This document shows positions 539 through 27,575 of a DNA stretch of 60,318 nucleotides, piece after piece. Both the position numbers and the translations under genes were made by a program. How positions within the stretch are numbered: the stretch's first letter is position 1; every line of letters starts with the position of its first letter. The stretch spans positions 1 through 60,318 of IMG/VR virus record IMGVR_UViG_3300043783_000122; one strand, written 5' to 3'. Source of the DNA: a virus (taxonomy: Duplodnaviria > Caudoviricetes). Under the pieces are notes generated by a model that was not told where the DNA came from, did not search any database, and saw only the letters and a program-made list of their open reading frames with translations.

Positions 539-828
539 TTTTCAGGTTCCTGTGGCCCAGGCGGTAGGGCATTAGTGTCCTTGGACTTGTCGGCGAGCTG
601 CTTTTGTAAGCCAGCAATCGTCTTTTGCGCCTGGGCAAACTGTGCCTCGGCGCTGGCCGCCTCGTCGAGCGCTCGGTTGCGCTGGGCTTGCAAGGCATTG
701 AGCACATGTTCCAGGAACGCCGGATTGGACCCCTGCGGGCCGGCCTGCTGCGCCAAGGATGGTAATATACAGCATAAAAGCCAAAATGATATTGTAAGTA
801 ATGTGCCAGCTATATTTAAGAATTGCAT
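535..828 (-). CDS. signal-peptide/TM coiled-coil protein (possible inner spanin or fibre accessory)
   Basis: Likely ATG at 828; MQFLNIAGTLLTISFWLLCCILPSLA|QQ followed by a coiled coil. Confidence 0.5.
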   Translation of the reverse strand: MQFLNIAGTLLTISFWLLCCILPSLAQQAGPQGSNPAFLEHVLNALQAQRNRALDEAASAEAQFAQAQKTIAGLQKQLADKSKDTNALPPGPQEPEK

Positions 829-2483
829 GTGCCACCTGTGAGAATCCCCAGAGTGAAGATCAGTGTTTTGGCCTGATTGACCGTGCAAGTCTGCGTGAGG
901 CCGGGATTGCCATTTATTCTGAACCCTGTGGTGGCCTCGATTGTTGTTGTGGCCTTGATCGAGGTATTAGTTAAAAGTGCGCCTGTGCCCGCATCAGTTG
1001 TCGTTCCTATCGACAGCCCACCGCTCGTATTGAACCGAGCGTTCTCTGAGTTATTGATAAAAAACTGTAGCGGGGTATTTCCAGATGTGCCAATAATAAG
1101 TGGCGCCGTACCGTTTGCGGTCAGAAAGCCTTTTCCCTGGTACACGCCAGTGAGATTTACGCCACCGAGACCTACAGTGACGTTGTTTGTGCCATTGCTG
1201 TACAACGCCTCGATGATCGTGGCGTTGCCGCCATTATTGTTTGCCAGCCCAGATTGCGTCGTGGCGTTCTGGTTATTAAGATTGGAAATAAAGAATGGAT
1301 TACCAAAATTGATCGGCGTGTCTCCCGTTAGCGTGAAGTTTGCGCAGTTGCAGAAATTGGCAATCGTGAGCGCCTGTTGAACGGTGATGGCATTGCCAGT
1401 CAAGGCAATAGCTGGCGCCAAATTGACCGGAGACCCAAACGAAAGACCGTTGAAGTATGCACCTGCGGCTGTCCCCACATTGTCAATTGCGATGGCGGCA
1501 TCAAAGCCGCTTGCCTCGGCGCCAGTGTCATTTGTCACCTCAATACCGTAACGATTAGTTGCGGTGCCGCTACCATAAAATCCAGTCTCACTTTGCAAGC
1601 CAACTAAGTCTGGGGTCGAGCCTCCAGTGTCTACGGCCGCGACAGCATCAATACCCAACAAAAATCCGTTAATACTCTTATTGGTATAGGCATTCCCGAT
1701 GACAGCAACCTTATCTCCCGCTGGGGTTCCACTGTTGACAACCATATGGAAAGCGCCAGCTACTGCAACCGTTGTTCCGCTGCTGTCATCTGATTCCACG
1801 TAAAGAGCGCGGCTTTCCGCGTTCAACATCCCATTGGTGAGAGTACTTGGCGCCGTCACTGAACTTGGGTTGGCAACGACGATATTGTTGTAGATCAATG
1901 GCCCGGTCGTCGGCGCAGACGGGCCGGTTTGGGTGACCGTAAATCCTTGATTGGTCGTGCCGGTAGTCGGATTGATCGTCAGCGGGCCTCCAGAGAGCGT
2001 GGCGAGCGATCCTGTTCCACCTGCTGTTGAACAGACCCAGAGATTAGCAGTTGCATTATAAAGAGGGAAGGCACCAGAGGTGGTGCAGAGCGCAGTTAGA
2101 ATACTCGTACCAGGGGCCGAAAGGTAGCCGGACCAGATAAGGTTGTTGAATTGGTCATACACGCTCTCGGCATAATTGCCCGAGCCGAAGATGAAGGCGG
2201 AACCAGCACTGTCTAGGACGACCGGATTGGCATTGGGAGTGTTCTGGAATGCATCCTGCCAAGTCGTCTTGGGGGTGAAGCTGCCAGGAACGCAGATGTT
2301 GTTCGTATTGGGCACGCAGAAATAGACGAAGCCCCCGACGAGCGGGGTGCCAGTGGCATCGAGGAACTGGGTCTTGGCGTTGGGCAAGATGCTGGCGGTC
2401 TGTGCGCTCAGGGGCGTAGCGAGTAGCAATGTGGCGAGGAGCGCCCAGAGCCCACGCGTTGTTCGTGCAACCTTGCCCATCAT
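816..2483 (-). CDS. tail fibre/tailspike with podoviral particle-binding N-terminal domain, preceded by a signal-peptide-like leader
   Basis: LPNAKTQFLDATGTPLVGGFVYF...PKTTWQD...NANPVVLDSAG...GSGNY resembles podovirus fibre attachment domains; G/N/T-rich beta-structured C-terminus; last large gene of the virion module; start 2480 or 2483 coupled to the upstream stop. Confidence 0.8.
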   Translation of the reverse strand: MMGKVARTTRGLWALLATLLLATPLSAQTASILPNAKTQFLDATGTPLVGGFVYFCVPNTNNICVPGSFTPKTTWQDAFQNTPNANPVVLDSAGSAFIFGSGNYAESVYDQFNNLIWSGYLSAPGTSILTALCTTSGAFPLYNATANLWVCSTAGGTGSLATLSGGPLTINPTTGTTNQGFTVTQTGPSAPTTGPLIYNNIVVANPSSVTAPSTLTNGMLNAESRALYVESDDSSGTTVAVAGAFHMVVNSGTPAGDKVAVIGNAYTNKSINGFLLGIDAVAAVDTGGSTPDLVGLQSETGFYGSGTATNRYGIEVTNDTGAEASGFDAAIAIDNVGTAAGAYFNGLSFGSPVNLAPAIALTGNAITVQQALTIANFCNCANFTLTGDTPINFGNPFFISNLNNQNATTQSGLANNNGGNATIIEALYSNGTNNVTVGLGGVNLTGVYQGKGFLTANGTAPLIIGTSGNTPLQFFINNSENARFNTSGGLSIGTTTDAGTGALLTNTSIKATTTIEATTGFRINGNPGLTQTCTVNQAKTLIFTLGILTGGTCNS

Positions 2484-6209: not shown

Positions 6210-6215
6210 AGCGGG

Positions 6216-6974
6216 CTAGCCTGTGGTGAACGGATTGTTCGTGTACGGCACTGCTGTTCCGCCCCACATTGGCCCGCTGGCCACAGCGCTCGGATTAGTG
6301 GCTCCGCCCCTACTCGCCAAGAGCTGCTGGATGAGCTGATACTGCATGGCCGTGCTGATACCACCCGTGAGCGCGTTCGCGCCGCCCGTCGCCGCACCAG
6401 CGATAGCGTTGCCGCCGCCAGTCAGAGCGTTCGAGATACCCTGGCCGGTCGAGATGGCACCTCCAGCGAGGGCACCAGCGGCGTTCGCCCCGGTCTGCAC
6501 GGGCTGGAAGAGCAGATTGGCGATCTGCTGGTTCTGGGTGAGGTAATTCGTAAGTTGCTGATTATACGTGCTCTGCGCCAGCCCGGTGGCGTAGCTCGCC
6601 GCGCCCTTCTCGGCGGCGCCGGAGCTTCCTAGGCCATTGGCGGCATACGAATTCTGGGTACTCTTCAGCCCCTGGTCCAGCGTGAACTGATACCCCGGCG
6701 TGCTTGCGAGCATACTCGCATCGAACGGCTTGGTGAGCGTCGGCAGCGCGGCATTATATGATGTAAGCGCGTTATCCCCCGCCGTGATATACGGATTGAG
6801 CTCATTCTGCGCGGTGTTGAACATCGCGAGCTGGGTCGCCTCGGCGCCCCCAGCGGCCTTGGTCTGCGCGCTAGCCCCGATGCCAGCAGAGAGCAGTCCC
6901 GCGCCTGCTGAGAGGCCGCCAAGGGCGAGGCTTCCGCCTGCGCCCAATGTTCCAGCTGCTGTTACGAATGGCAT
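6216..6974 (-). CDS. DNA ejection/pilot protein (P22 gp7-like)
   Basis: Gly/Ala-rich N-terminus and the conserved LNPYITAG...PGYQFTLDQG...NSYAANGLGSSG segment. Confidence 0.75.
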   Translation of the reverse strand: MPFVTAAGTLGAGGSLALGGLSAGAGLLSAGIGASAQTKAAGGAEATQLAMFNTAQNELNPYITAGDNALTSYNAALPTLTKPFDASMLASTPGYQFTLDQGLKSTQNSYAANGLGSSGAAEKGAASYATGLAQSTYNQQLTNYLTQNQQIANLLFQPVQTGANAAGALAGGAISTGQGISNALTGGGNAIAGAATGGANALTGGISTAMQYQLIQQLLASRGGATNPSAVASGPMWGGTAVPYTNNPFTTG

Positions 6975-8098: not shown

Positions 8099-10561
8099 TC
8101 AGTTATCGCTCGGCGTGGTATCTAGCCACGCCCCTGAAAACGCGGTGAACGCCGATCCCGACCATGATAACCTGAAAACGACATCCCGTGCCATACCCAT
8201 GCGATGCCAGACCATTTGGACCAAGTAGTCCCCTTGCGCGCCCATTGATTGCGGCGGGAGGACGTTGAATGTTCTCCCCCGGTCGTAGGAGATTTCGAGG
8301 GTGACGAGCTGTTGCACGGTGGGATTGACAGCGTCGCCGTTGCCGCAGTCCATATCCAGCGCGAGTCGGTCATATGTCGCCTTCTTTCCATCGTTCAAGA
8401 GATGCGGGAAGCCCCGGCGGCGTACAATCGGTCCGCCGAAGTCGTTATACGTATTCAGATCAAGCACGTATATCTTCCCATTCTGCCAGTCTCCGCAGAC
8501 GTTCAGGCCATACGCCAGCGCCATGCAGTTCGCCCGGATGCGGTTCTGGGCGCCGCTGGCTGGATCGGTCCAGGTACGCTCGTGCCAGAGATTCTCCCCG
8601 ACATCGTACACGATGGTTGCATTCGCGCTGGCGCTCGTCAGCACGTAGAAGATGTGATCCTGCTGCTTATAGACCATGCCGATAGCGTCGGAGAGGTTCG
8701 CGCCGGCGGCGATCCAGCCGGAGATGATCTTCTCTATGGCATACGTGCTGATCCTCCGTGCAGCATAGCCCACTCCCGAGAAGATCGTCCCCAGCCCCGC
8801 TTGGTCGATGCCCAGCCAGAAGGTCTGGAGATCGTGCGTAGCCACGCTATACGGAGCCATACAGCCGTGCTGGAGGAACACTCCGGGCATGATCTGGAAG
8901 GGGAACGACGTGCCCCCAGCGTCGTACCAGACCTCAGCGCTGTTCACCGCGCCCATGAGCCAGATCTCACGATGCAGCACCACGAGCGTCGAGAGCAAAT
9001 CTGGGTATCCCGTCTTCGCCGCGACATAGGTCGGATCGAACGCGGGAGGGTTGATCGCGATGAGGCTATACTGGAAGCCGAAGAGGGTGTTCCCCAGCGT
9101 CGCACTCAGCACGTCCCCTGCGTTATATCCAAGCCCGGTCGGAAGCAGCACGACATTCGTCACCACCCCGCTGACCGTGGTGATGTTCGCCGCAGCGCCA
9201 GCGCCCGAGCCCCCGGTGAGCGCCACATTATTGTACGTCGCACTTCCCGCAGTGCCCGCGCCCGCTCCGATGATCTGGCCCTGGAGGGGCTGGCCGGGGA
9301 CGCCAGTCAGCTCGCTATAGGTGATATTGCTGAGCGAGCTATACCAGTTCCTCGTTCCCGGCTGGGAGAACACCAGGAACGTGTCGAGATACCCTATGCC
9401 CACGCCCCCGAGGAAATTCGGATCGGTAATCACGCCGAACGTATTGACCGCTGTGCCCACATTCGTCACAACGAACGCGAACGCCCCGAGGCCTGGAATG
9501 GCACTCGTCCCGAGCACATCGCCCACGCTATAGCCGTTCCCAGTGTTGTCGAGCGAGAACGAGGTGACAGCCCCGTTTACTATCTGGAACTCTCCCGTCG
9601 CCCCCGCGCCCGTTCCGCCGGAGAGCGGAACATTCGAGTACACTCCAGAGACCGCTCCGACAGCGGTCACTGTGAGCTGCTCGCCGCTAAGCCCCGGCAC
9701 GGCCGCCGAGGCCAACACGTCCCCGACGAGGTAATTCGTCCCAGTCGGATTGAGTGCAACGCTCGTAATCGTCCCGTTCCCACCTGTGACGATGGAGCCG
9801 AATATCGTGGGGACCTGGAGCGTCGCCGGGGCGAGGAAGTTGAGCGTCGTCCCGCCCGTGCCCGCCGTAGCGGTGAAGGTTCCGTTCCACTGGGGAACGT
9901 TCAGCCCGGCCAGGGTGAACGGACTACCTGGAGAGAGCCCATGTGCAACGCTCGTGGTGAGCGTGACGATGCCGCCCAGCCCCGGCCCGATGAGGTTGGT
10001 GATGGGATTGGTGACGGTCAATGTCGCCGTCGCCCCGGTGCCACTACCGCCCGTGAGCGCCGCGCTGGGATAACTCCCGTTCGCCCCGCCAGTCCCGCCG
10101 TTCGTAATGGCCACGCTGCCCGGCTGGCCACTCGACGTGTCCCCCGCATTCGTCACTTGGCCAGCGAGGGGCCGCCCAGCGATTCCCGCCTGCAAATTGA
10201 TCGCATATCCGCTCGTCGTGCCGTCAACGATCACCAGCACATTCCCGTTGTCCTGCATCCCCACGGGAGTCGTCAGCGCGGCGGACAGGGTGCCAAGCAG
10301 GTGCAAGACGAACGCTGAGTCGATGAAGTAAACGTTCTGGCCGCAGACATAGTAGAGCGAGCCGTTCGTCGCAGTGTAGAGCTGCCGCCCGACCCCTGCC
10401 GCCGGGCTGGCCTTCAGTACGAGCCCTGGCGTGAGCTGGTTCGTGTACGGCGCGCTAGCATCCTGGGGGTTCTTCTCGGGATAAAGATTCTGGCACCTCT
10501 GAGCATCCGCGATAACGCTCCGGGCGAGGTACGTACCCCCGAGGAGATTAATTCTGGCCAC
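8099..10561 (-). CDS. tail hub/packaged-DNA stabilization protein (P22 gp10-like) with inserted Gly-rich repeat domains
   Basis: N-terminal AQRCQNLYPE...TPGL; EVWYDAG...FPFQ...GCMAPYSVA; RISTYAIE; YDVGENLWHER; SYDRGRTF...WHRMGMARDVVFRL, all gp10-like. Confidence 0.85.
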   Translation of the reverse strand: MARINLLGGTYLARSVIADAQRCQNLYPEKNPQDASAPYTNQLTPGLVLKASPAAGVGRQLYTATNGSLYYVCGQNVYFIDSAFVLHLLGTLSAALTTPVGMQDNGNVLVIVDGTTSGYAINLQAGIAGRPLAGQVTNAGDTSSGQPGSVAITNGGTGGANGSYPSAALTGGSGTGATATLTVTNPITNLIGPGLGGIVTLTTSVAHGLSPGSPFTLAGLNVPQWNGTFTATAGTGGTTLNFLAPATLQVPTIFGSIVTGGNGTITSVALNPTGTNYLVGDVLASAAVPGLSGEQLTVTAVGAVSGVYSNVPLSGGTGAGATGEFQIVNGAVTSFSLDNTGNGYSVGDVLGTSAIPGLGAFAFVVTNVGTAVNTFGVITDPNFLGGVGIGYLDTFLVFSQPGTRNWYSSLSNITYSELTGVPGQPLQGQIIGAGAGTAGSATYNNVALTGGSGAGAAANITTVSGVVTNVVLLPTGLGYNAGDVLSATLGNTLFGFQYSLIAINPPAFDPTYVAAKTGYPDLLSTLVVLHREIWLMGAVNSAEVWYDAGGTSFPFQIMPGVFLQHGCMAPYSVATHDLQTFWLGIDQAGLGTIFSGVGYAARRISTYAIEKIISGWIAAGANLSDAIGMVYKQQDHIFYVLTSASANATIVYDVGENLWHERTWTDPASGAQNRIRANCMALAYGLNVCGDWQNGKIYVLDLNTYNDFGGPIVRRRGFPHLLNDGKKATYDRLALDMDCGNGDAVNPTVQQLVTLEISYDRGRTFNVLPPQSMGAQGDYLVQMVWHRMGMARDVVFRLSWSGSAFTAFSGAWLDTTPSDN

Positions 10562-11285: not shown

Positions 11286-12512
11286 TTAGACCAAGGTTAC
11301 TTTCTTGATCGTGCCAGCGTCATTGTAGGCGAGATAGACATCACCACCGACAGTATCCTTAAATACATTGTAAAATCCCGCACTCAAATCGGTCGTCGTG
11401 GGAGGGGCGGACAACTGAACGGCCAATACTTCCTCGTTGGCATGTTGGAAGCGATCATTGCCAATAGCGTCTTGATAGAGATAAGCCCCACCACCTCCTA
11501 AAAATCCGCCAGGACCGAGCAACGCTACGGGACTACTCCCTAGGCCGAATACATCGAGATAGCTGTTCTGCCCGTTTACTGACCAATTGACGGCAGAACT
11601 ATAGTCGCCGGTGACATCCGTAAAAGTCGCTGACTCAAATTGAATGACAGCATTGAAATCAACATCAGGGAAAGACCCCGCACTTGCAAAAGGCCCGGTC
11701 GGGCTTTCGAAAAGGAAATTTGCCGCAGAAAAGTCGTAGCCGATCGAGACAAATCCGTTTTGTGTCGCGCGTATCCAAACATTCGGCGAGCCGGTCATAG
11801 TGATGTTATCACTCAACGACAAAGTTGCGCCGTTGCCAGCAGTTAAGAAATCTCCGGTAGTACCAATGCACTTGACGCCGTTCGATGGGCCGTAGGAGCC
11901 GCCATCTCCGATAGCGAAAAATGTTCCGCCGCCAGAGGCGAAAACAACAATGGTGTCTTCGCTAAGGCTTGTTCCGTCGATGGTGCAATTCTTTAATATA
12001 TATGGGACAAGCGACGGTGGAGTAATGAAAATTATCCCGATTGCACCATCGACCTCCCCGGAGGGAATTTCAGTGAACGAAACTAAAGTTATGTCGCTGG
12101 GATCACCTTGAATGACCCAGGCCACGGGAACACCATTTTGCCCCTGCGACGAACTGAAAGGAGCGCATAGAGCAACACCGCCGTAAGCGCCAGCGACAAA
12201 ATTGGTGATGACAACATAGCCGTTGAAATCTAGCGCACCAACATAGGCGTTTGCTTTGGCGAACGTCGCCCACGGCCCATTCACGCCCCCCGTATAAGTC
12301 GCCGACAATCCATTGTAGCTGTCGCTGCCGGTAGAGGCGTTGACGTAGAGGGAGAGGTTGCCGGTGAGGATGGTGCGGATCGGCGTCTCGCCCAGAACGC
12401 CGGCATTATCAATCAGCGCACTGCCGCTTGTTCCACCGGAAATGGCCGTGGCGCCAACAGTCAGCCCGCTGCTTCCTCCGCCATCGCCGCCGCCCAGAAG
12501 AGATGACATCAT
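11286..12512 (-). CDS. tailspike/receptor-binding-like protein (probable beta-helix)
   Basis: LYVNASTGSDSYNGLS...GPWATFAKA motif typical of beta-helix N-termini; G/S/T/aromatic-rich; visibly AT-richer DNA. Confidence 0.65.
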   Translation of the reverse strand: MMSSLLGGGDGGGSSGLTVGATAISGGTSGSALIDNAGVLGETPIRTILTGNLSLYVNASTGSDSYNGLSATYTGGVNGPWATFAKANAYVGALDFNGYVVITNFVAGAYGGVALCAPFSSSQGQNGVPVAWVIQGDPSDITLVSFTEIPSGEVDGAIGIIFITPPSLVPYILKNCTIDGTSLSEDTIVVFASGGGTFFAIGDGGSYGPSNGVKCIGTTGDFLTAGNGATLSLSDNITMTGSPNVWIRATQNGFVSIGYDFSAANFLFESPTGPFASAGSFPDVDFNAVIQFESATFTDVTGDYSSAVNWSVNGQNSYLDVFGLGSSPVALLGPGGFLGGGGAYLYQDAIGNDRFQHANEEVLAVQLSAPPTTTDLSAGFYNVFKDTVGGDVYLAYNDAGTIKKVTLV

Positions 12513-16169: not shown

Positions 16170-16741
16170 AACGTCGGCCGAATCTCCAAGGCCGCGCTGC
16201 ATGTCACAGGCGAGCCTTGAGCAGTCGTCACTCGGAAGAACAGGGAGGTCGAATTGCTATATACCGTATTGTTCGACACTGCCTGTGCGGTGTTAGCAGC
16301 GTTCACTCCAGCGGTGGTAATAGTCACAGCGGTCACGGGGATGAGCGCAAAGCCGGTCGCACCTGCTCCGGTGTAAATGGCCACGCTTGCACTTGACGCG
16401 CTGGCGGAGCAATTATAGAGCCGTAAGATTGGCCCCACAAAATTTGGAAGCCCGTTAGGAAGGAAGAAGGAGAACGGCGTATCGGCGACGGAGTTGAGGT
16501 TGATTCCGACGCCAATCGGGACTGTGTAAGCTGGGTTGCTCTGAAAGATGGCCGAGTTCATCGCATTCAGCGTCGTGCGCAGCGCGCTCGCCGCGATCTG
16601 CTGCTGGCCGTTGGTCGGGAGGTTCTGGAGGATGATAGCGGCGACGCTGGCCTGGGTAGCGGGCGACTGCGCACGACAAGGCGAAGCGAGGGTCGCTAGG
16701 ACCCCCGCCAGAACGGCCGCTCGTAGCGCGAAACGAGTCAC
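16166..16741 (-). CDS. virion-module protein with Sec-type signal peptide
   Basis: MTRFALRAAVLAGVLATLASPCRA|Q; S/T/A-rich beta domain. Confidence 0.65.
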   Translation of the reverse strand: MTRFALRAAVLAGVLATLASPCRAQSPATQASVAAIILQNLPTNGQQQIAASALRTTLNAMNSAIFQSNPAYTVPIGVGINLNSVADTPFSFFLPNGLPNFVGPILRLYNCSASASSASVAIYTGAGATGFALIPVTAVTITTAGVNAANTAQAVSNNTVYSNSTSLFFRVTTAQGSPVTCSAALEIRPTL

Positions 16742-18027: not shown

Positions 18028-19263
18028 TTAGATGACATCGGCTACAGCGCAAGCCCATTCGGGCCTTATCCAGAGATAGCCGTAGAGGACATCGAGCCGG
18101 GTGAGCAACTGATCCGTGCCCGGAATGTACGCCGTGAGCATCCGCATCGCCACCCCGTCGAATTCCTCCCTCGCCGCCTCCTCCACGCCCTTCGTCGGCA
18201 TGATGAGGTCGGCGGTGGCCATCGTCACGCCCTCGGGGGCGAAGAGGAAGTTCTTTCGATAGGCGACGCTGGCGGGGTTGACAAGCGTCACCGCTCCCGC
18301 ATTTGCGGGCGACACGTCCACGGTCTGGTACTGGACCGTGTTGGCGCCGACAGCGGGGATCAGCGCGGGATAGATCGAGACATTCGTGCCACCACCAGGG
18401 ACCGCCGCAGTCACGACGAACTGGCGAAGCTGCGAGCTGGCCTGCTTGGTGATCCGGTTGACCATATGCACGCCAGCGAAGGTGATGATGTCACCCACGT
18501 TGAGCGTGCCAGTGCCAGTGTTGATGAGAATGTTCAGCCCGGTCTGGCCAGCGCCGTTCACGAGATAGCCCGCGGCCGAACCTCCGGTATGCGTGAGGAC
18601 CGTCTGGTCCATGTACCAGTCGCCGCCGAGGGTGTCGCTGGCCATCTTGCCAGTCTTGTACTGCTCGCCGATCTTCTGCTGCGGGTTGAACAGTCCCGAC
18701 AGCGAAGAGACCGTGCGAGACTCCGTGATCGGATCGAGGATGAACTTCCAGTCGCCCATGGGGGCGGAGTTCTGCTTGAGGTACGCGCCGGCTTGCAGCC
18801 ACGTCTGCGCCACGGGCGAGATGAGGTTGCCGGCTCCGTCGCTGTTCTGCACATAGTTGCAGATTCCCGCTCCGTTCGTGCCGCCAGTATCGACGCCAGA
18901 CATCACGTCCGCCGCGACGTTGCCCGCGAGATTGTTCACCATAGGGGCCAGGACGCGGCGGGAGAAGTCGTCGAGGCTCATCGTGCGATCGACAGTGTTG
19001 AACGAGACATCGACGCCCTTTTGCGTAGCGAGCACCAGCGTAGTGTTCTGCTCCGCCGTGTCCTGGACGGACGCTGCAGGCCCCGTTCGCACCGTGAAGT
19101 CGTTCGGCAGACGAATTCGCAGCGAGGTGCCGATCTTGGCACCCGTCTTCGCGAAGTTGTCGTCGTACTGCATATCCAGGTGCTGGATGAATGCGTTGCT
19201 GTTCTTCCAGAGGCGAACGGCCTCTCGGGTAATCATGTTGATAGTGAGAAGACTGTTGGCCAC
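18028..19263 (-). CDS. major capsid protein (P22 coat protein family, HK97 fold)
   Basis: MANSLLTINMITREA...GAKIG..LRIRLPND...GDIITFAGV..VN...LRQFVV...RLDVLYGY..IRPEWAC. Confidence 0.95.
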   Translation of the reverse strand: MANSLLTINMITREAVRLWKNSNAFIQHLDMQYDDNFAKTGAKIGTSLRIRLPNDFTVRTGPAASVQDTAEQNTTLVLATQKGVDVSFNTVDRTMSLDDFSRRVLAPMVNNLAGNVAADVMSGVDTGGTNGAGICNYVQNSDGAGNLISPVAQTWLQAGAYLKQNSAPMGDWKFILDPITESRTVSSLSGLFNPQQKIGEQYKTGKMASDTLGGDWYMDQTVLTHTGGSAAGYLVNGAGQTGLNILINTGTGTLNVGDIITFAGVHMVNRITKQASSQLRQFVVTAAVPGGGTNVSIYPALIPAVGANTVQYQTVDVSPANAGAVTLVNPASVAYRKNFLFAPEGVTMATADLIMPTKGVEEAAREEFDGVAMRMLTAYIPGTDQLLTRLDVLYGYLWIRPEWACAVADVI

Positions 19264-19691: not shown

Positions 19692-20558
19692 TCATTGCAA
19701 CTTCATCCCATTCTTGCGCTTGGCATTGACCTCGGCCTGACGCTTGGCGATCCAGTCAGCACTGGACGTGTTCTTGGTGTCGTACACGGAGAAGGCCGGT
19801 CGCGCACCGCGCGCTGCGCGTTCCCGTATTGGGGCCGGGGCTCTAGAGACGCCCTCGACCGCTGCTGGCCCCTCGTCCTCGTCAATTACTTCGTCGCCTG
19901 CAGGCACTTCGATCTCCTTGCTCGCCACGAGCTTGGCATGGAATCTGGTGATCTCGGCGGCGACACGCACGGGGTTCGAGCTGAGCTGCATCAACCTATC
20001 CGCCTCTGCGGGGTTCTGGCCGAGCGCGTAGAGAACCTCGTCCGGGGCGCCGGTCTCCAGGGCGGCTTCGACGAGGCTACGCGGCAGAACTGGCGTCCCC
20101 GCCCTCGGGTCGAAGAAGGGCGAGCTCTTCTTGAGCACATCCAGCACGGCGTCGAAGTCCTTGTGCGCCTCGCGGCCCTTCAGCACGGCGCCATTGCAGG
20201 CTTTGTCGAATTCGTTCTGGGCCGTCTGGGCGCTCACGAGCTCGCGCAGTTGCTCGGCCGTCAAGGGCTTGGCCGCAGGCGGCTGGCGCGCAGCATTCGG
20301 ATCGGGCTGCTCGCCTCCTGCTGCGCTCGTCGAGAGCTTCTTGAATTCTTCGAGAGTCTGGTTCGTCAGGGCGAGCTGCCGGCGAGCCTCTTCGAGCGCC
20401 CGCTCGGATTCGCGCCTCTCGGCCACGACGCTCTGGAAGCGCTCAAGCGGAACAGTCTGCGCGACGACCGGCTCCGGCTTTACAGTCGGAACGCTGGGCT
20501 TCGGCGTCTCTTTGACCGGCTCTACGACCGGCTCGACAACTGGTTCCTCTCCAGCCAT
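19692..20558 (-). CDS. capsid scaffolding protein
   Basis: Acidic/Pro N-terminus, coiled coil, APAPI and WIAKR C-terminus; upstream of the coat gene. Confidence 0.8.
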   Translation of the reverse strand: MAGEEPVVEPVVEPVKETPKPSVPTVKPEPVVAQTVPLERFQSVVAERRESERALEEARRQLALTNQTLEEFKKLSTSAAGGEQPDPNAARQPPAAKPLTAEQLRELVSAQTAQNEFDKACNGAVLKGREAHKDFDAVLDVLKKSSPFFDPRAGTPVLPRSLVEAALETGAPDEVLYALGQNPAEADRLMQLSSNPVRVAAEITRFHAKLVASKEIEVPAGDEVIDEDEGPAAVEGVSRAPAPIRERAARGARPAFSVYDTKNTSSADWIAKRQAEVNAKRKNGMKLQ

Positions 20559-21149: not shown

Positions 21150-22454
21150 TCACTTCGTCTGCACAATGGGATTATTATTCTCATCAAACAAGAGCCCCGT
21201 CCCGCCCGCAGTGCCCGCGAGGCCTGCGGCTAGCTCGGGCCACGCGAGCTTATTCGGGTCGAACTTCGCCCAGGGCGAGCGGACGCCAGTGACGAAGCCG
21301 GGGGCGACGGGGCTCTCGCTGAATTTGATGAAGCTATCGTGTCCTGGGTCCTCGGAGGTATTCTTATACACCACGCTGTCGTAGCCCTTTGAGGCGATAT
21401 AGTCGCGATAATCCTTCATCCCATCGAGTTTGTCAAGCTCCTCTGGCGGAAATTGTCCGATGGTGCTGGGAGAATCTTGACGCTTGTAGCCTCCATGCAG
21501 CGCGGCGTCAGCGTAACCGTTGTTGAGGTCCTTAAGCGCGGTGTTGATCCGATCCTCACTCCATGTCCCCATATCCCGCATTCGGAGTGGATTATTCGCC
21601 GCGACGACCACGGGATACTGCCTCGGCGCCTGCGAGCTCGTGAGCCAGTTAGACGAGAACACATTCGCCTGCTTCGGGTTTCCGAAATGCACGCCGAGTT
21701 CGTCGTCGGGCAACTTGAGCGCATCGTTCTCGGTTCCGATGTCCGCCGCTCCACCCTGGCTGGGCGTCTCCCAGTTCTTCAAAACGCGCGTGCCGTGGAC
21801 GAGGTTCTCACTCCGCCCCATCACGCTCGCGCGAAGGGGAGTGGCCAGCACCCCGCCCTCGCGGGGGATGTCGTCGAAGATACTCTGTGGAAAGTTCGTC
21901 TGATTTCCAGCCTTATTCATGTAACTGCTACTCGCCCCTCCCACATGCGTCCCAGCGACATCGAAGATGGAGGCGCCGGGATCGGAGGCGAGCTTCTTCG
22001 CAATGGCTGCGTCGGAGATGTCTGGCTGCGCATTCATCTTCTCGTAAGCAGCCATTTCTGGAGTATAATAGCTCTTACCAGGATTAAAGGGCGCTACTCC
22101 AGTCCCCTTGATTGCATCGGCTGCAAGCCGCTCGCCTCCGGTAAGCGCGTTGCCACCCTCGCGAGAGGCCAGTGAGCTCGCCCCTCGTATCAGGGCATTC
22201 TCAATCTTCGCCCCCGGCAGCAGGCCCATCGCAGCCGTCAGGGCGAAATGACTGGCCTCGTCCTCGGTCATCTCACCACGTAGGGCCTTCATCGCGTCAG
22301 GGAGGCCGAGAATCTCAGCGGCCGAGCGAAGAACGAGTTTCCTGCCTCCTTCGAGTTTATTCAAGATATCGGGTGTAGCAATAGTCTGGCCACTCTTGGG
22401 GGTGGGGGCCTCCGCGAGCCCGAGCGCACTAACGATGTCATCCTCGTCGCTCAT
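21150..22454 (-). CDS. putative virion-packaged protein with ADP-ribosyltransferase-like (ART-PolyVal-like) domain
   Basis: LVHGT...GVHFG...YPV....NPL...GYDSVVYKN..E....S..KF...S..AKFDP pattern; coupled to the portal stop. Confidence 0.6.
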   Translation of the reverse strand: MSDEDDIVSALGLAEAPTPKSGQTIATPDILNKLEGGRKLVLRSAAEILGLPDAMKALRGEMTEDEASHFALTAAMGLLPGAKIENALIRGASSLASREGGNALTGGERLAADAIKGTGVAPFNPGKSYYTPEMAAYEKMNAQPDISDAAIAKKLASDPGASIFDVAGTHVGGASSSYMNKAGNQTNFPQSIFDDIPREGGVLATPLRASVMGRSENLVHGTRVLKNWETPSQGGAADIGTENDALKLPDDELGVHFGNPKQANVFSSNWLTSSQAPRQYPVVVAANNPLRMRDMGTWSEDRINTALKDLNNGYADAALHGGYKRQDSPSTIGQFPPEELDKLDGMKDYRDYIASKGYDSVVYKNTSEDPGHDSFIKFSESPVAPGFVTGVRSPWAKFDPNKLAWPELAAGLAGTAGGTGLLFDENNNPIVQTK

Positions 22455-24745
22455 AGCCGGCGATATTCCTTGCTGCCGGTGAAATCTCTGGCGAACCAGT
22501 TGCCATTCACGTCCTGCTTGGCCCCGGCGACGGGCGGGCGCATCTGGGTAGCCGATAGCGGCAGCCCCGCGCTCGCGGGCGTGCCCATCTTCAGGGCCTC
22601 ATCGACATTCACCGTCGCAGGCTCCAGGCTGGCTTGGCCGCTCTGGTCGAGCAGGTCCCCCAGGACTGGCGCGAGGGTCTCCGGAGTGATCTCCGCCTCG
22701 CCCTTGGCCGCCGCATCGACGAGGACCTTCAAGCGCGCCGTCAGGGCATTGTAGATGTCTGTTTCGCTCTTGGCCTCCTTGCCGCGCAATTTCAACTTCT
22801 CCGCGGCCAGCTCGGTCATGGCGTTCGATAAGAGGTTCTGCAGATTCTGTATCATCTGCTGCTGGGCCTGCTCCTTCTGACTCGGGCCTTCGCCGAGCGC
22901 TTGAGCAGGCACAAGGCGCCGCAGCCGCTGCGCGGCCTCCTCGGCGTGCGGGAAGTCTCCAGCGCGGAAGAGGATGTCGCCCAGCACCGCGCTCAGTTGC
23001 GGATTCTGGGTGAGGATAAGCTTGAAGGCATCGAAGGCCTCCTCGCGCCGAGTGGCATAGTTCGGCCCAATGTCAGCCTGGACCTCGTATTTCCCCACGC
23101 TCGGATTGAGAATATGCTGCGCGACCTTATTATCCTCCGTCATCACCTGCTGGTAATGCTTGGCCGCTTGGGGGTCCAGCACGACCTCCATGCTCTGTCC
23201 GTCCTCGGCGAGCATCTGGATGACGCGCTTGGTGTCGTAAATCTTGGGAATCAAGTCAAGTATAACCCGACCAAGATGGCGAATAGCAACGCCGAGGTTA
23301 TCGATAAAATGATAAGTAGCATTATCACTTTGCCGTTGCCTTTCCCCGATGGCCTTCGCGGAGCGCTCATTTCCCTGGCCTCCCATTTGGGCCGCATATT
23401 GTCCGCTCGTCATGAGCAAGTCTTGGAGCGACGCTTGCATCTGCGTGGCGTAAATCGGCGCGGCAGTCGGAGGCTGTATGCGCGTGGGCGACGGAAGCTG
23501 GGAGCCATCCTCTCGCAGCGCCTTATACGGCAGGGCGCTAGTGTTCACCCTGTTCGCCTCATTCCAGTACGTTTCGAGCTCCTCGATACTCTCCACCGCC
23601 ACGAGCCAGGGCGTCTTCGTCTGCAGGCCCATGAATTCGACCGCAGAGCTGGCGGCGTAATTGTACATCCTCTGGGCATCGAGCATCGAGCGAGTGTGGC
23701 TCTTCCGATCCATCGTCCCCTCGATGATCGTCTCCTCGCCCAGCACGGGGATGATCGGGATGTACTTCCCCGGCCACTCGCGGGCCTCGCTCTCAATCTC
23801 ATGCTCGCCGATGATGAGCTTGTACTCGACGGTCTGGGTTATCACATCGCGCTTTCTGACGCGCTTATTACCCTCGATGGCCTTGACGATCAGGCGGAAC
23901 TGGAGGTTCTTCTTGCCGCCCGCTTCGAGGAGGCTCTTGCGGATGAAGCCGCCGGGGAAGCCCTTGATGAAGTCCTTCGGGAGGGCGTAGAGAACATCCT
24001 CTTTCTCGACGACCCGATAGTATTCCGCCACGCGGAAATAGTCCTCGCTGTGCCACCCGCTGTCGCCGCCTAGCGGCGCGGAGGTCGCAATGTCCTGGTA
24101 GTCCTTCCAGCGCGGAGACTTCTCGAACTCCTCCCGCTCGATGTCCTCGAACACAAAGGCGAACTTGGCGTCGCTCTTATCGGCCTCCTTCGCATCGGGG
24201 TCGAGGTAGATAGTGAGCGGGTCGATCACCCGCTTGATCTTAATACTCTGATCGAACGTATCGTCGTCGTCGTACTCCGTCACGACGCGCAAGTAGCCCC
24301 AGCCGGCGTTGACCTGGAAGTGCGTGGCAGTATCATACGCTGTGATGGCGTTGGAATCGTACTCTATGTGCCTCATCATGGCCGAGAGCACCTGTGCCGA
24401 CTCGAACGTCGCCTCATTCCCCGTGGGCATAACCTTGATGCCGGGTTTGTTCTGCTTGGCATCGTTGGTGATCTGCAGATTATGTTGCCGCACCCCGTTC
24501 AGCGTCAGGCTCGGCCGGTCATCGACCTCCCTCGTCCGCCGCAAGTCATTGGGCCACTGGTAGCCGTTATACGCATCGGCGTTGGCGAACTTGTAGTCGT
24601 CGAGAAAGTGCTGCCGCGCCGTCTGCTCCCACTTCAGGCAGCGCTCGAAGCGTTCCTGGGCCTCGGTCACGAGGTCGCTCAGGCCGGGGCCTCGTTCGTC
24701 GGCCTTATAGTCGCTCCGGGCGTCATCGGGAGGATGATTGGCCAT
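22451..24745 (-). CDS. portal protein (P22-like)
   Basis: 764 aa; QWP..LR..RE...RPSLTLN, WPGKYIPIIPVLGEE, DAQRMYNY, IPKIYDTKR, GKYEV...GPNYATRREEA. Confidence 0.95.
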   Translation of the reverse strand: MANHPPDDARSDYKADERGPGLSDLVTEAQERFERCLKWEQTARQHFLDDYKFANADAYNGYQWPNDLRRTREVDDRPSLTLNGVRQHNLQITNDAKQNKPGIKVMPTGNEATFESAQVLSAMMRHIEYDSNAITAYDTATHFQVNAGWGYLRVVTEYDDDDTFDQSIKIKRVIDPLTIYLDPDAKEADKSDAKFAFVFEDIEREEFEKSPRWKDYQDIATSAPLGGDSGWHSEDYFRVAEYYRVVEKEDVLYALPKDFIKGFPGGFIRKSLLEAGGKKNLQFRLIVKAIEGNKRVRKRDVITQTVEYKLIIGEHEIESEAREWPGKYIPIIPVLGEETIIEGTMDRKSHTRSMLDAQRMYNYAASSAVEFMGLQTKTPWLVAVESIEELETYWNEANRVNTSALPYKALREDGSQLPSPTRIQPPTAAPIYATQMQASLQDLLMTSGQYAAQMGGQGNERSAKAIGERQRQSDNATYHFIDNLGVAIRHLGRVILDLIPKIYDTKRVIQMLAEDGQSMEVVLDPQAAKHYQQVMTEDNKVAQHILNPSVGKYEVQADIGPNYATRREEAFDAFKLILTQNPQLSAVLGDILFRAGDFPHAEEAAQRLRRLVPAQALGEGPSQKEQAQQQMIQNLQNLLSNAMTELAAEKLKLRGKEAKSETDIYNALTARLKVLVDAAAKGEAEITPETLAPVLGDLLDQSGQASLEPATVNVDEALKMGTPASAGLPLSATQMRPPVAGAKQDVNGNWFARDFTGSKEYRRL

Positions 24746-26140
24746 CTAGCGTCCTAGCCATCCATGGCCACTCTGGTTCCCAGTGATGCGCAACGTCGTG
24801 CCTCCAGGATTCTCTGCTCCGATCCCCGCGCCCGACAGCACATTCATCATCGGCCCAAGGCCGAGCGACTTCGGGCGTTCGAGCTTGCACTCAATGGCCT
24901 TCACCCTCATCCCGGTCGATATGGCGAAATACTGGAACGCGTCTGCTGCATCGCTCGCCCAATTATGATCGGGCAACGTCGAGAACCTCCTCGTCACCGG
25001 ATCGACGATGTACTGGTAGTGGTGCAGCGCATGGAGCCCTTCGGCGCATTTCTCTTTATCGAAATAGCAGGAGGAGAAGACCGTGCGGGCCGCGTTCATC
25101 TTATCGGCGACGGAGAGCTTGGGGACGATCTTCTTTCTGTCCCAGCCATAGACCGCGGCCACTTGTTCCTCGATGGAGAGCTTCGTGCCCAGCGTCTTGC
25201 TCTTGGCGTCGTGCGGCAAAAAGATCATGCCGTAGATGTACCCACGATGCTGCATCACCTCAAGGTAGTGGTCAATGTGTTTGAGCCTGTTCTGATAGAA
25301 GTCGATCAGATGCCACTCAAAGCCGATACGCTGGACGAACCAGATGCTCGTGTGGTCGCTGCGGCCCAGATCGAAGATCGCCAGAACCGGCTGCGTTCGA
25401 TCGAGCGGGACGTGGCATATTCGGCCCTGGAGCTGCGCCTCGCGAAGCTCGTCGGCAAAGATCGCGCCATCGAGAACGACCTTCGTGTGGCCCTCGTAGA
25501 CGTGCAGATACTCGTCCGGGTCCGTCACCCGCATGTGCTCGATCTCGGCGAGAACCTCGGGCGCGAGCCAGTTATTGTCGGCAAAGGTGGTCTTCACGAC
25601 GACCGAATTTGGCGGGGGAGCGTGCAAGACGAAGTGCTGGTAGATGAAGTCCTCGTCCAGCTCGGGGTTCAAGCTGAGCCACATCTCAGCATCTTTGTTG
25701 CGAAAGATGGTCGGCCCGAGGATGTTGAAGCTCTCCTTGCTCATCTTGGCCGCTTCCTCGACCCAGGCCCGCGTGATGCCCTCGTAGCTCTTGACCTTCT
25801 GGACGTTATGCCTGAGGCCCTCGAAGGAGAACTGGGTGCCGTTCGCCGCCCCACGGCCGAGGATGTGGGCCTGCTGAACCTCATAAAGGTAGTTCATGCC
25901 CATATGAGATATTTGATCGGCCAGAAGTTTGTGAACCGACTCGTCCAGGGACTTCTGGAGCTCACGGGCACAGAGGATTCGCTCGGTCCCAGTCAGGCCG
26001 AGGATGAGAAGCGCTCGGGCGAAGCTCCAGCTCTTCAGGCCCATACGGCCACCATAGGCGACCTTATAGCGTGCGGGCTGGAACAAGAATTGGAGCTTGT
26101 CGGGAAAGTCTATGCTCGTCGTGGCTATCGGGTTGGACAT
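24746..26140 (-). CDS. terL: terminase large subunit (PBSX/Terminase_3-like)
   Basis: RYKVAYGGRMGLKS, LCARELQKSL..SV, WVEEA, nuclease DLGRSD.T.IWF, HNWASDAADAFQY. Confidence 0.95.
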   Translation of the reverse strand: MSNPIATTSIDFPDKLQFLFQPARYKVAYGGRMGLKSWSFARALLILGLTGTERILCARELQKSLDESVHKLLADQISHMGMNYLYEVQQAHILGRGAANGTQFSFEGLRHNVQKVKSYEGITRAWVEEAAKMSKESFNILGPTIFRNKDAEMWLSLNPELDEDFIYQHFVLHAPPPNSVVVKTTFADNNWLAPEVLAEIEHMRVTDPDEYLHVYEGHTKVVLDGAIFADELREAQLQGRICHVPLDRTQPVLAIFDLGRSDHTSIWFVQRIGFEWHLIDFYQNRLKHIDHYLEVMQHRGYIYGMIFLPHDAKSKTLGTKLSIEEQVAAVYGWDRKKIVPKLSVADKMNAARTVFSSCYFDKEKCAEGLHALHHYQYIVDPVTRRFSTLPDHNWASDAADAFQYFAISTGMRVKAIECKLERPKSLGLGPMMNVLSGAGIGAENPGGTTLRITGNQSGHGWLGR

Positions 26141-26166
26141 CTGGCGAGCCTGACTGGGCGAACGAA

Positions 26167-26227
26167 GGGCGGGGCTTTAGGTGGGCCATGTTGTCGTGAC
26201 AACACCGACCCACCCTAAACCCCGCCC
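26167..26227 (-). terminator. long imperfect stem-loop immediately upstream of terL
   Basis: GGGCGGGG.TTTAGG.TGGG...TGTTGTC-GT-GACAACA...CCCA.CCTAAA.CCCCGCCC nested inverted repeat. Confidence 0.5.
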
Positions 26228-26255
26228 CACTAGCAGGGCAGAAACTTCGCCGCGC

Positions 26256-27575
26256 TTAGAAGCCACTCCAGGCAGTTATGATGCCCGAGGCGCCCGAGGC
26301 GTCGGCCACGGTCATAGAGATACCGACTGCAGCAGTCGTTCCCGAGGCTATCGTGCACGTCGCCATGACCTGTGTAGTCGAGGGAATGAACGTGATAGTC
26401 GTATCAGTCCCAAGTCCTGTGCAGGCATTCGCCGTCGTCTCCGCAGTCGTCGTGAACCCCGCGAAGCCGGTCGTGTACGCCATCGTCGGCGCCTTGTACA
26501 TCGGCACCGGGAAGACTACAGGGAAGCTGAGCGCGGTGCCCGAGGTGGTGAAGTGCCCCTGCCAGCGGGAGAGAAGGGTCGCTCCCTCATGGACGGAGTA
26601 GACGAACTGGAGATTATCCAGCAACTCCGCCTGCCTCGGGCGAATTTCATACGTCGAGGGGAGGGCCGAGCGCTCCAGCTGCGCCCCGACGAAGGCGAAG
26701 CCGTCGGTGGCGCCGGAGCCCGAGGTCGTGGGGGTGAAGCAGATGCCAACGCCAAGCTCGGTCGCTGTGCTTGGCACCGCCGCCGTGGTGAAATATCTCG
26801 CGAACGCCGTGGTGAGCGAAATCGGCGTGTTCACCAGCGTCGAGATGCCGGTCCAAGCGGGGGTGATGAGCGGGGTGGTCGAGGGTGCGACCGCCAAGCC
26901 CTCGTCCGTGCCGGTGCCCGCGATGATGACAAGGTTCGCCGTGTTGCCGTTATCGGCGGCCAGACCGGCCAGCGCGGCCACTTGCACGGAGAAGCTAACG
27001 GTCGAGCCAGCGGCCAAGAGCGACTGGGGACTCGGCACGGCTTGCCAAGCGCAGATGGGCTGGGTGAGCGCACCCGAGGTGCGGAATACCTTGGCGACCT
27101 GGGTGAAGCCGGACGGCGCCGTCGGGGAGCTCGTCACGATGGCCGAGCGGCCCGCGCCCGAGCCGACGTTAGTCACGAGCACCCAGCGGTCGGCGATCAG
27201 GGCGGCGGAGGTGGGAGCGGAGGTCGTGGCCCCAGTGACGGTGCCGGTTCCATTGACTTGGGTTCCGAGCAGATCACCATTGCCCAGCAAGTTCCTGGGC
27301 GAGCTCGCCCCACCAAATTGCGTGATGCGCATTCTCTCGGTCTGGGGATTCTGGCCCTGGGAGAGTCCAGTATCGACCGGGGCGAGCTCATTCCCCGTAA
27401 TAGGCGCACCGGGCGGGAGGAAATACTGACACGCCCCGTTGACCTTCGAGGCACAGTCGGTGTTGGGCGTCGTGCTGCCCGCGAGCGGCAAGCCCGGCCA
27501 GAGGCCCTGTTGCGCGTTGGCGGTCGCGCATAGCGCGATAACGCCCACCGCGGCGAGAAGAATCTTCTTGAACAT
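26256..27575 (-). CDS. signal-peptide-bearing protein with fibre-type carbohydrate-binding-like domain
   Basis: ATG 27575: MFKKILLAAVGVIALCATANA|QQ; RNLLGNGD...ADRW...AQLE....STYEIRP..AEL matches the common phage-fibre CBM-like module; ends FPVPMYKAPT... Confidence 0.7.
   Translation of the reverse strand: MFKKILLAAVGVIALCATANAQQGLWPGLPLAGSTTPNTDCASKVNGACQYFLPPGAPITGNELAPVDTGLSQGQNPQTERMRITQFGGASSPRNLLGNGDLLGTQVNGTGTVTGATTSAPTSAALIADRWVLVTNVGSGAGRSAIVTSSPTAPSGFTQVAKVFRTSGALTQPICAWQAVPSPQSLLAAGSTVSFSVQVAALAGLAADNGNTANLVIIAGTGTDEGLAVAPSTTPLITPAWTGISTLVNTPISLTTAFARYFTTAAVPSTATELGVGICFTPTTSGSGATDGFAFVGAQLERSALPSTYEIRPRQAELLDNLQFVYSVHEGATLLSRWQGHFTTSGTALSFPVVFPVPMYKAPTMAYTTGFAGFTTTAETTANACTGLGTDTTITFIPSTTQVMATCTIASGTTAAVGISMTVADASGASGIITAWSGF

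Follow-up and report, generated by a model that had tools for sequence, protein, structure and literature searches.

Tailed phages are, in the textbook view, assembled wholly within the cytoplasm. Extracytoplasmic assembly of virion proteins that carry a signal peptide when synthesised is familiar from the filamentous (Ff) phages, whose coat proteins pIII and pVIII follow this route. The nearest described counterparts of the principal protein discussed here are the tailspikes of P22-like podoviruses (of the P22 gp9, Sf6 and HK620 type), in which an N-terminal particle-binding domain is coupled to an exchangeable receptor-binding body, and whose gene occupies the distal end of the structural module. 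The tailspike that we describe appears to share both of these traits, but differs in having a Sec-type leader (20–36 residues long across its family) and an even number of cysteines in its mature form; our literature search found no description of tailed-phage tailspikes or fibres exported in this manner.

The DNA analysed (hereafter ‘the window’; 60,318 nucleotides) is the whole of record IMGVR_UViG_3300043783_000122 and represents a complete, ~60-kb, P22-like phage genome. The source phage is uncultured. Its structural genes include those for the large terminase subunit (24746–26140; PF04466, E 2e-36), a P22-type portal (22451–24745; PF16510, E 7e-147), a P22-type coat protein (18028–19263; PF11651, E 2.4e-33, and phrog_283), a head-to-tail adaptor (15369–16202; phrog_12985, E 8.5e-25, and phrog_637, adaptor Ad3) and a gp10/Hc3-like tail hub (8099–10561; phrog_578, E 3.5e-77), all on the minus strand and all encoding proteins without a leader. 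The initial annotation had already noted that leaders are absent from the portal, coat, adaptor, hub and ejection proteins; a rule-based scan of the translations agrees, and extends the observation to the scaffold. Two fibre-like proteins without a leader are also encoded (11286–12512 and 12509–12853).

Sec-type leaders in the late block

Leaders were sought with a rule-based heuristic of our own (as distinct from SignalP), applied to 29 curated late-block proteins and calling for a net positive charge in the n-region, a hydrophobic stretch of 8–18 residues free of charges, and small residues at positions -3 and -1. Six of the 29 score as positive, and none of the same 29 when reversed. These are the very six minus-strand genes, with starts at 2483, 14370, 14836, 15359, 16741 and 27575, to which leaders had been ascribed, and each translation reads as described. 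Cleavage is predicted at about residue 18–30, and the residue at +1 is either Gln or Ala in every case; by reading, there is thus no lipobox cysteine and no lipoprotein signal.

The initial annotation had raised the objection that the true starts might lie further downstream; this is not borne out, as each assigned start is backed by a ribosome-binding site or by overlap with, or adjacency to, the upstream stop. The tailspike start at 2483 has both a GGGAG Shine–Dalgarno sequence and an ATGA start/stop overlap; AGGAGG precedes 14836, TAGGAG 15359 and GGAG 27575; the start at 16741 overlaps the upstream stop (GTGA), and that at 14370 lies 1 nt beyond one.

A seventh candidate had been put forward as similar, in the 97-residue product of 535–828 (minus strand), which combines an N-terminal hydrophobic segment with a coiled coil and a proline-rich end. 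The hydrophobic segment and SLA/QQ sequence are indeed present (here and below, a slash marks the proposed cleavage site), but there is no basic n-region and the protein fails the rule. Family matches are weak (two PHROGs, E 0.0005–0.007 overall, with phrog_2658 at E 0.0065; DUF5930 at E 0.00045, which falls short of the family cut-off). We read the product as a coiled-coil protein anchored in the membrane, for which a cleaved signal peptide is doubtful; it may function in lysis or as a membrane protein. Separately from the six, a leader is also found on a DPBB protein (33117–33527).

The tailspike

The gene at 816–2483 (minus strand) encodes a 555-residue tailspike, in which the leader (residues 1–27, nt 2483–2403; TPLSA/QTASILPNAK) is followed by an N-domain and then a putative receptor-binding body. 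The N-domain is a conserved particle-binding domain, with which the leaderless tailspike-position proteins of relatives also begin; the window holds a single copy, making this its sole tailspike. Relatives of the domain were gathered by tblastn and ORF reading in L007, L008, L011, L012 and L128–L133, together with 30 database homologues.

Sixteen of the 30 homologues carry a leader, in each case ending directly ahead of the motif Q-x-x-x-(I/L)LPNAK. In all 18 leader-bearing tailspikes, small residues at -3 and -1 and then Gln are found at a fixed distance ahead of the N-domain, which follows directly behind the leader. On an N-domain tree of 44 rows, 17 leader-bearing rows fall into one clade and the leader label needs just three changes, as compared with a mean of 14.8 when labels are shuffled (0 of 500 shuffles being as low), a pattern of stable inheritance. 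Leader status is nonetheless not all-or-none within a genome, as L011 has leaderless tailspikes together with one leader-bearing ORF. The cysteines follow the leader: an even mature count is seen in 17/18 leader-bearing tailspikes as against 7/12 leaderless ones, and some of these cysteines lie within the N-domain itself, a region devoid of them in 10 of the 12 leaderless relatives.

The tailspike gene closes the structural module, following the ejection genes, as it does in L136, L007, L008 and L012. Bodies have been swapped among its homologues, which variously have pectate-lyase-like, collar or S74 modules (PF12708, PF13229, PF07484, PF13884); that of the window tailspike has no Pfam or PHROG match. 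The protein likewise has no match to a Pfam head-binding family, nor to the PDB in a single-sequence search, with the family profile giving marginal PDB matches to a ‘Tail spike protein’ (9vyg_o, E 0.015) and a ‘Tailspike head-binding domain’ (7eeq_A, E 0.019). From the shared N-domain, its single copy in the genome, the position after the ejection genes and the swapping of bodies, we infer that the exported tailspike would still be part of the virion.

The smaller leader-bearing proteins

Next to the adaptor gene lies that for a 165-residue protein (14862–15359, minus strand; leader residues 1–21, nt 15359–15297, AWA/AQ), an arrangement seen in 9/9 loci. We read this as a conserved core gene. 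The leader is present in 92 of 93 homologues and the cysteine count is even in 92/92, the four cysteines of the mature protein being invariant in the family. Three leaderless orthologues (L144, L145 and L146) have 0, 0 and 1 cysteines respectively, with all four invariant positions replaced; L145 and L146 are Acetobacteraceae assemblies whose tailspike N-domains are leaderless too. The three orthologues serve as a natural control that ties the leader to the cysteines. The predicted structure (pLDDT 87.6) is a tailspike-type beta-sandwich, with VIA Z-scores of 11.8 to a phage tailspike (rmsd 1.7 over 88 residues) and 9.6 to CBA120 TSP4; its matches in BFVD are fibre proteins.

Upstream of the terminase gene is that for a 439-residue, fibre-tip-like lectin (26256–27575, minus strand; leader residues 1–21, nt 27575–27513, ANA/QQ). 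Its full-length viral homologues have the leader in 33 of 34 cases and an even cysteine count in 33/33, and the gene stands upstream of those for TerL and the portal in 10 of 36 loci. The model (pLDDT 74) finds tail-fibre proteins in BFVD (E-values to 2e-24, TM-scores of 0.6–0.67) and carbohydrate-binding modules in the PDB. As for the 165-residue protein, the predicted fold is a jelly-roll or sandwich and not a membrane-type barrel.

The remaining three genes are also on the minus strand. That at 16166–16741 encodes a fibre-tip-like protein of 191 residues (leader residues 1–24, nt 16741–16670, CRA/Q), for which cleavage was placed after CRA with guidance from a relative, P0125, that is 65% identical; the leader has a cysteine at -3, a position without one in P0125. 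Residues about 70–189 match the C-terminal end of 60 long proteins, as well as many small ones. A fibre-like protein of 340 residues is encoded at 13348–14370 (leader residues 1–18, nt 14370–14317, PAGA/Q; positive by our rule) and has, at residues about 60–135, a motif common to 78 viral fibre-like ORFs. These ORFs serve as a control, since 74 of the 78 are leaderless (four are flagged, one of them weakly), and so uphold the premise of the initial annotation that fibres normally lack signal peptides. In metagenomes that premise is not absolute, as the tip domain of 16166–16741 is accompanied by a leader on 50 of its best 150 representatives. The last of the three (14372–14836; leader residues 1–21, nt 14836–14774, AHA/Q) is a small protein of 154 residues, all five of whose homologues have, by eye, a leader and two or four mature cysteines; a homologue adjoins a gene of the 26256–27575 family in L135.

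In the families of 26256–27575, 14862–15359, 14372–14836 and the tailspike, leaders are kept as a feature of divergent homologues although the leader sequences themselves diverge. Occurrence on hundreds of homologues indicates that we are not dealing with a single oddity. Five of the six proteins, all but 14372–14836, have support as fibre or tailspike parts; four of the six consist of a tip-like or lectin-like domain standing alone, with no recognised particle-binding domain.

Discussion

The six mature proteins each contain an even number of cysteines (8, 6, 2, 4, 2 and 6, in order of start from 2483 to 27575), so the paired cysteines pointed out at the outset hold throughout. With leaders conserved, mature counts almost always even, and the cysteines lost where orthologues are leaderless, both export and disulfide-linked folding are well supported at the level of sequence, as had been proposed. 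The presence of leaders and paired cysteines on tailspike and fibre-like proteins makes it probable that the host-recognition proteins fold in the periplasm, away from the cytoplasm in which tailed phages build their particles.

On balance, we think it somewhat probable that the receptor-recognition parts of this phage travel through the host Sec pathway and dock onto particles at lysis. Six late-operon products, namely the sole tailspike, a fibre-like protein and four small proteins resembling tips, would be synthesised with cleavable type-I signal peptides, cross the membrane unfolded and be cut by signal peptidase, mostly ahead of a glutamine. Once in the periplasm, the mature tailspike and fibre proteins would fold, oligomerise and become disulfide-bonded, whilst DNA-filled particles would be finished in the cytoplasm without the exported parts, from the leaderless portal, adaptor, hub and ejection proteins. 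Destruction of the envelope by holin, endolysin and any spanin would mix the two pools; the tailspike could then dock by its N-terminal particle-binding domain, and the small proteins might either dock too or remain free.

That the exported proteins would join particles only at or after lysis, as first suggested, is deduced from the tailspike having kept its particle-binding domain. Late docking appears feasible by analogy with P22, as tailless P22 heads are reported to become infectious in vitro on addition of tailspike (bioRxiv 10.1101/2021.09.20.461090). The E34 tailspike is reported to tolerate a 43-residue N-terminal extension when binding to P22 heads, and an uncleaved form of the window tailspike might therefore dock as well. 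A Sec signal takes a protein no further than the periplasm; docking would require lysis thorough enough to let the two pools mix. The five smaller proteins may be virion members; the two leaderless fibre-like proteins make a fully cytoplasmic tail conceivable.

An alternative, which we regard as unlikely though the best placed of those considered, is that the exported copies are accessory factors and not virion parts, binding or cutting receptor polysaccharide in the periplasm and, after lysis, in the medium. Masking or removal of receptor would give superinfection exclusion and reduce the loss of progeny on debris, or the proteins could act as decoys; particles would be equipped from the small part of the tailspike pool that is not exported. 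The four stand-alone domains fit such a role, as do the location of the 26256–27575 family outside the tail block and the enzyme-type bodies of the tailspike homologues; the small stand-alone tip-like proteins may be secreted decoys or receptor masks. Against it, the particle-binding domain stands right behind the leader in every leader-bearing tailspike and has no second copy in the genome, the 165-residue protein is encoded beside the adaptor at all loci inspected, and an internal start that could yield a leaderless isoform is not conserved (a TTG codon within the conserved motif of the tailspike, found in 3/5 leader-bearing genes and having no Shine–Dalgarno sequence).

It is improbable that the leaders are instead uncleaved signal anchors, tethering the proteins to the inner membrane until depolarisation by the holin, in a ‘SAR-like’ fashion, such that lysis times docking. 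Signal-anchor-release domains are used on phage endolysins (PMC6116005), and some leaders that are long or weakly charged, e.g. those of P0025 and P0006, could be taken in this sense; the small -3/-1 residues and glutamine held at a fixed distance from the N-domain speak for cleavage, however, and by reading the hydrophobic stretches are rich in Leu and Ala, like ordinary signal peptides, as opposed to the Gly/Ala-rich composition of weak anchors.

Slightly less probable again is a ‘moron’ origin for some of the small genes with leaders, which would then be lysogenic-conversion genes inserted into the tail region and expressed for the benefit of the host. Lambda Lom, a signal-peptide outer-membrane protein encoded among tail genes (PMC12309495), provides a precedent; the gene content of the block between adaptor and hub differs among relatives, and one promoter-like site lies directly upstream of 13348–14370. 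The genes are, however, tightly packed within the late operon, overlapping or set a short distance apart; terminator-like sites are about as frequent as in shuffled sequence (15 versus 13.3); the folds are fibre-like and not those of outer-membrane barrels; and the 165-residue gene belongs to the conserved core. That the leaders are annotation artefacts, with true starts downstream of the hydrophobic segments, is very improbable indeed, as the TTG codon is all that speaks for it, against the start signals described above, signal-like features kept over hundreds of homologues, and the absence, in L136 and L138 alike, of an in-frame start immediately after the cleavage sites.

Returning to export with docking at lysis, the proposal may be widened to a compartment-split maturation of virions throughout a clade of ~60-kb P22-like phages, probably of Acetobacteraceae, with Sec-exported, disulfide-linked tailspikes and tips, and with infectivity gained only upon mixing at lysis. 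We hold this more tentatively, as falling a little short of an even chance. Filled particles lacking a tailspike would wait in the cytoplasm, and the tailspike and tips would be trimmed to an N-terminal glutamine and would receive their cross-links from disulfide enzymes of the host. Ahead of lysis, receptors may be stripped or masked by the pool in the periplasm, and hardening of the fibres by disulfides could be an adaptation to harsh, e.g. acidic, habitats.

If this is true, a tailspike that is exported, cut and disulfide-bonded ahead of meeting the particle would bring into tailed-phage assembly a second compartment and a last step outside the cytoplasm, and would make phage infectivity dependent on the Sec, signal peptidase and Dsb systems of the host. 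It could also account for the very stable recognition proteins of some phages, and suggests a built-in removal or masking of receptors ahead of release. Annotation pipelines that take a signal peptide to speak against a structural role would misclassify proteins of this sort, and engineered tailspikes or depolymerases of the exported type would need periplasmic expression.

Several known systems resemble parts of this scheme. Secreted and SAR endolysins, such as Lys44 of Oenococcus phage fOg44, are also late phage proteins that use host Sec and build up beyond the cytoplasm ahead of lysis (PMC6116005); they are, however, wall-degrading enzymes and not virion or fibre proteins, and no muralytic Pfam domain is found in any of the six proteins. 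Lambda Lom is likewise a signal-peptide protein encoded within a tailed phage’s tail-fibre region (PMC12309495). It is, however, a membrane beta-barrel that is expressed in lysogens, and it lacks a fibre domain, whereas the window proteins have fibre or tailspike domains, in one case with a particle-binding domain. The MAT fibres of Bdellovibrio (Caulton et al. 2024, PMC10769870) show that such fibres are able to fold after export; these are cellular proteins on the predatory bacterium’s own surface that do not join a virus particle. Finally, Ff phages are extruded through the envelope without lysis and have neither head nor tail, whereas the capsid and DNA-packaging components of the window phage are ordinary cytoplasmic proteins.

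A P22-type module with six leader-bearing genes

The window, 60,318 bases long, is a complete virus record without tRNA genes, and a megablast search with its portal-to-coat block as the query found no close relative among deposited phages. Working down the minus strand from ~27.6 kb to 0.8 kb, we see a P22-type morphogenesis module comprising the large terminase (24746-26140; PF04466), portal (22451-24745; PF16510, E 7e-147), scaffold (19692-20558), coat (18028-19263; PF11651), adaptor (15369-16202; phrog_12985/637), a gp10-like hub (8099-10561; phrog_578) and an ejection protein (6216-6974; phrog_598), all encoded on that strand; terminator-like sites are no more frequent in this late block than in shuffles. 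Replication functions, including DNA polymerase A, a nuclease and a methylase, occupy the plus strand from 37 kb on, and the interval 30.9-32.3 kb contains an endolysin-like gene (PF08924) together with a holin-like one. Since distant prophage-like relatives of the module sit in assemblies labelled Rhodopila sp., Acetobacteraceae bacterium and Acidocella sp., the host is probably an acetobacterial alphaproteobacterium.

A curated list of 29 late-block proteins was scored with a rule-based check (not SignalP) that looks for three features: a net positive charge in the n-region, a hydrophobic core 8-18 residues long and free of charges, and small residues at both -3 and -1. Exactly six are positive, all from the minus strand (816-2483, 13348-14370, 14372-14836, 14862-15359, 16166-16741 and 26256-27575), with none among the same 29 proteins reversed; an external control came from 78 viral fibre ORFs that share a motif with 13348-14370, of which 74 are leaderless. 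The initial annotation had proposed signal peptides for seven genes: its N-termini for these six match the translation and all six pass the rule, while the seventh, 535-828, has a hydrophobic N-terminus without a basic n-region and fails; its product looks like a membrane-anchored coiled-coil protein.

Two fibre-like proteins from the variable block between adaptor and hub (11286-12512 and 12509-12853, minus strand) are leaderless, so that export would not extend to every fibre-like gene of the phage; they are weakly similar to each other (E 0.004-0.016), and the N-terminus of one is rich in Gly. Outside the late block, 33117-33527 (minus strand) encodes a further putative exported phage protein, a leader-bearing product of 136 aa with a domain of the DPBB_1 lytic-transglycosylase type (PF03330, E 2.9e-20). 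ORFs 33737-34273 (minus strand) and 47677-48123 (plus strand), both without a Pfam family, also pass the rule, the latter beginning directly past the stop codon of a replication-block AAA_24 gene. Separately, a 75-aa ORF at 30144-30371 (minus strand) opens with a twin-arginine-like motif (..RRGFLGG..), followed by a segment that shares 70% identity with residues 33-59 of the coat protein; a related locus (L141, 15050-15640) has a similar Tat-like ORF with a fragment resembling the coat C-terminus, and two others (L025, L032) have coat-like fragments upstream of their homologues of 26256-27575.

The tailspike

Neither Pfam nor PHROGs yields a family for any of the six leader-bearing proteins. 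Directly behind the leader of 816-2483 lies a domain (..ILPNAKTQF..; the ‘N-domain’) that forms the extreme N-terminus, after Met and 2-4 residues, of leaderless proteins encoded at the same gene position, after the ejection genes, in related phages. Database homologues join the N-domain to pectate-lyase-like, beta-helix, collar, SGNH or S74 bodies, a swapping of bodies that is characteristic of modular tailspikes. The family profile has a marginal match to a solved ‘Tailspike head-binding domain’; the mature tailspike, as a single-sequence PDB query, gives chance-level matches only.

Thirty tailspike homologues divide into 16 with a leader, 12 without and 2 N-terminally truncated gene calls. 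On a tree of 44 N-domain rows (two database homologues, P0014 and P0019, and locus L138 were missed by the anchor pattern and left out), 3 changes suffice to explain the leader label, where shuffled labels need 14.8 on average (0/500 as low), and 17 leader-bearing rows fall in one group; the tailspike leader may have a single origin on this tree. We also considered an internal start at the TTG encoding Leu of ..ILPNAK.. as a general source of a leaderless isoform. This codon is found in 3/5 leader-bearing genes (the window, at ~2390-2392 on the minus strand, and loci L014 and L128) and 0/9 leaderless ones; the idea was dropped because the leader-bearing L136 and L138 use CTC/ATC and CTT/TTA at the site and no Shine-Dalgarno (SD) sequence precedes it, although occasional use of the start may occur.

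Identity and conservation of the other leader-bearing proteins

On evidence other than Pfam/PHROG, five of the six are assigned to the fibre and tailspike parts, 14372-14836 lying outside this five. The model of 26256-27575 (pLDDT 74) resembles the distal regions of tail fibres as predicted for many phages (E down to 2e-24), its PDB matches being carbohydrate-binding modules. That of the 165-aa protein (14862-15359; pLDDT 87.6) aligns over 88 residues with a phage tailspike (Z 11.8, rmsd 1.7), and it also matches CBA120 TSP4 in the latter's N-terminal docking domains (Z 9.6) as well as fibre ends in BFVD, with viral neighbours in the Atlas; 13348-14370 carries a widespread fibre motif. Relatives of 16166-16741 were absent from the viral-contig scan; in an exhaustive representative search its residues ~70-189 proved to have homologues among many small proteins and at the very C-terminal end of many long ones, and 50 of the best 150 representatives of this tip domain pass the rule (28/90 short, 22/60 long). 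One database homologue of 1106 residues (P0212) unites a leader, the tailspike N-domain and a tip of the 16166-16741 type.

Conservation of the leaders among homologues was a check proposed by the initial annotation: leaders are present in 33/34 members of the 26256 family (36 viral loci, 2 of them cut at the 5' end and 34 scored by the rule), 92/93 of the 14862 family and, judged by eye, 5/5 of the 14372 family, compared with 16/30 tailspikes. The exception in the first (L035) has a leader that is hydrophobic but contains an acidic residue; that in the second has its leader behind an extended gene call.

In 10 of 36 loci the 26256-family gene sits upstream of the terminase and portal genes and shares their orientation; in L014 it is followed by a further ORF with a leader and by a tailspike that has one too. 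Past the adaptor, L136 and L137 have a small leader-bearing gene (148 aa) that, from its position, seems to be an analogue of 14372-14836; tblastn found no link between the two. Leaders covary within the window, L136, and L141 taken with L128 (both leader-bearing), and in L145 and L146 (both leaderless); a strict all-or-none rule is broken by L011, which combines leaderless tailspikes with a leader-bearing ORF.

Among more distant relatives, leader-bearing ORFs also adjoin the adaptor gene in L013 (8120-9679 and 10743-11219) and L011 (1694-2557), one of them, of 519 aa, having a mature N-terminus like that of 16166-16741. In an Acidocella sp. assembly contig (L135, 6114-10344), four leader-bearing ORFs stand in a row (537, 414, 139 and 305 aa), including adjacent homologues of 26256-27575 and 14372-14836; this arrangement suggests that the exported proteins travel as a module.

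Cysteines and leaderless orthologues

Mature cysteine counts in the six window proteins are 8, 6, 2, 4, 2 and 6, even in every case. The number is likewise even in 33/33 members of the 26256 family and 92/92 of the 14862 family (exactly four in 91), and in 17/18 leader-bearing tailspikes (~7 in 100,000 under random parity) versus 7/12 leaderless ones. Within the N-domain itself, 9/18 leader-bearing tailspikes have a Cys pair; 10/12 leaderless tailspikes have no Cys there.

The clearest control is provided by three leaderless orthologues of the 165-aa protein, from L144 and the prophage-like L145 and L146, which contain 0, 0 and 1 Cys, with all four invariant positions (C71, C92, C151, C161) replaced. 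The tailspike N-domains of L145 and L146 are leaderless as well. Leader and disulfide-type cysteines are thus gained and lost together, as would be expected of folding in an oxidising compartment.

Proposed route and alternatives

The best reading, which we rate a little above evenly balanced, is that the recognition proteins would be exported via Sec, cleaved by signal peptidase I and folded with the help of disulfides in the periplasm; DNA-filled particles would be built in the cytoplasm, the tailspike docking once lysis mixes the compartments. Docking is inferred because the particle-binding domain is retained. Late docking of the tailspike is plausible given the classical experiments in which P22 heads were tailed in vitro, a subject of a preprint (bioRxiv 10.1101/2021.09.20.461090) and, reportedly, of Israel et al. 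1967 (cited in PMC3741392).

Alternatively, the leader-bearing proteins might serve a separate periplasmic function, with virions carrying a non-exported fraction; we consider this unlikely, if worth weighing, and the window genome has one copy of the N-domain, that of 816-2483. Tethering of the fibre proteins by signal anchors is improbable: the tailspike leaders, highly divergent in sequence, all end in a small residue with Gln directly behind it, 3-5 residues ahead of the conserved motif. Slightly more doubtful still is that some of the small leader-bearing genes are morons; the 165-aa gene adjoins the adaptor gene in 9/9 loci (downstream in 8, upstream in L144), with the hub following wherever the contig extends, which makes it part of the core of the tail cluster and not a chance insertion. 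Wrongly annotated starts are very improbable, the starts of all six genes being credible: four have an SD, those at 2483 (ATGA) and 16741 (GTGA) overlap the stop of the upstream gene, and that at 14370 lies one base past it.

Returning to periplasmic folding and late docking, Acidocella and Rhodopila are acidophiles, and for this reason we speculate that disulfide-bonded fibres might offer extra stability in acidic habitats.

Relation to known systems

No paper found by full-text literature search describes Sec leaders on the tailspikes or fibres of tailed phages. That maturation after export is possible for phage-like fibres is shown by the trimeric, phage-like MAT fibres of Bdellovibrio, in which a signal peptide precedes a conserved N-domain (PMC10769870). 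Late docking, if confirmed, would imply a new assembly route. The nearest published cases are secreted and SAR endolysins and lambda Lom; here a putative export step is added to the tailspike and fibre set.
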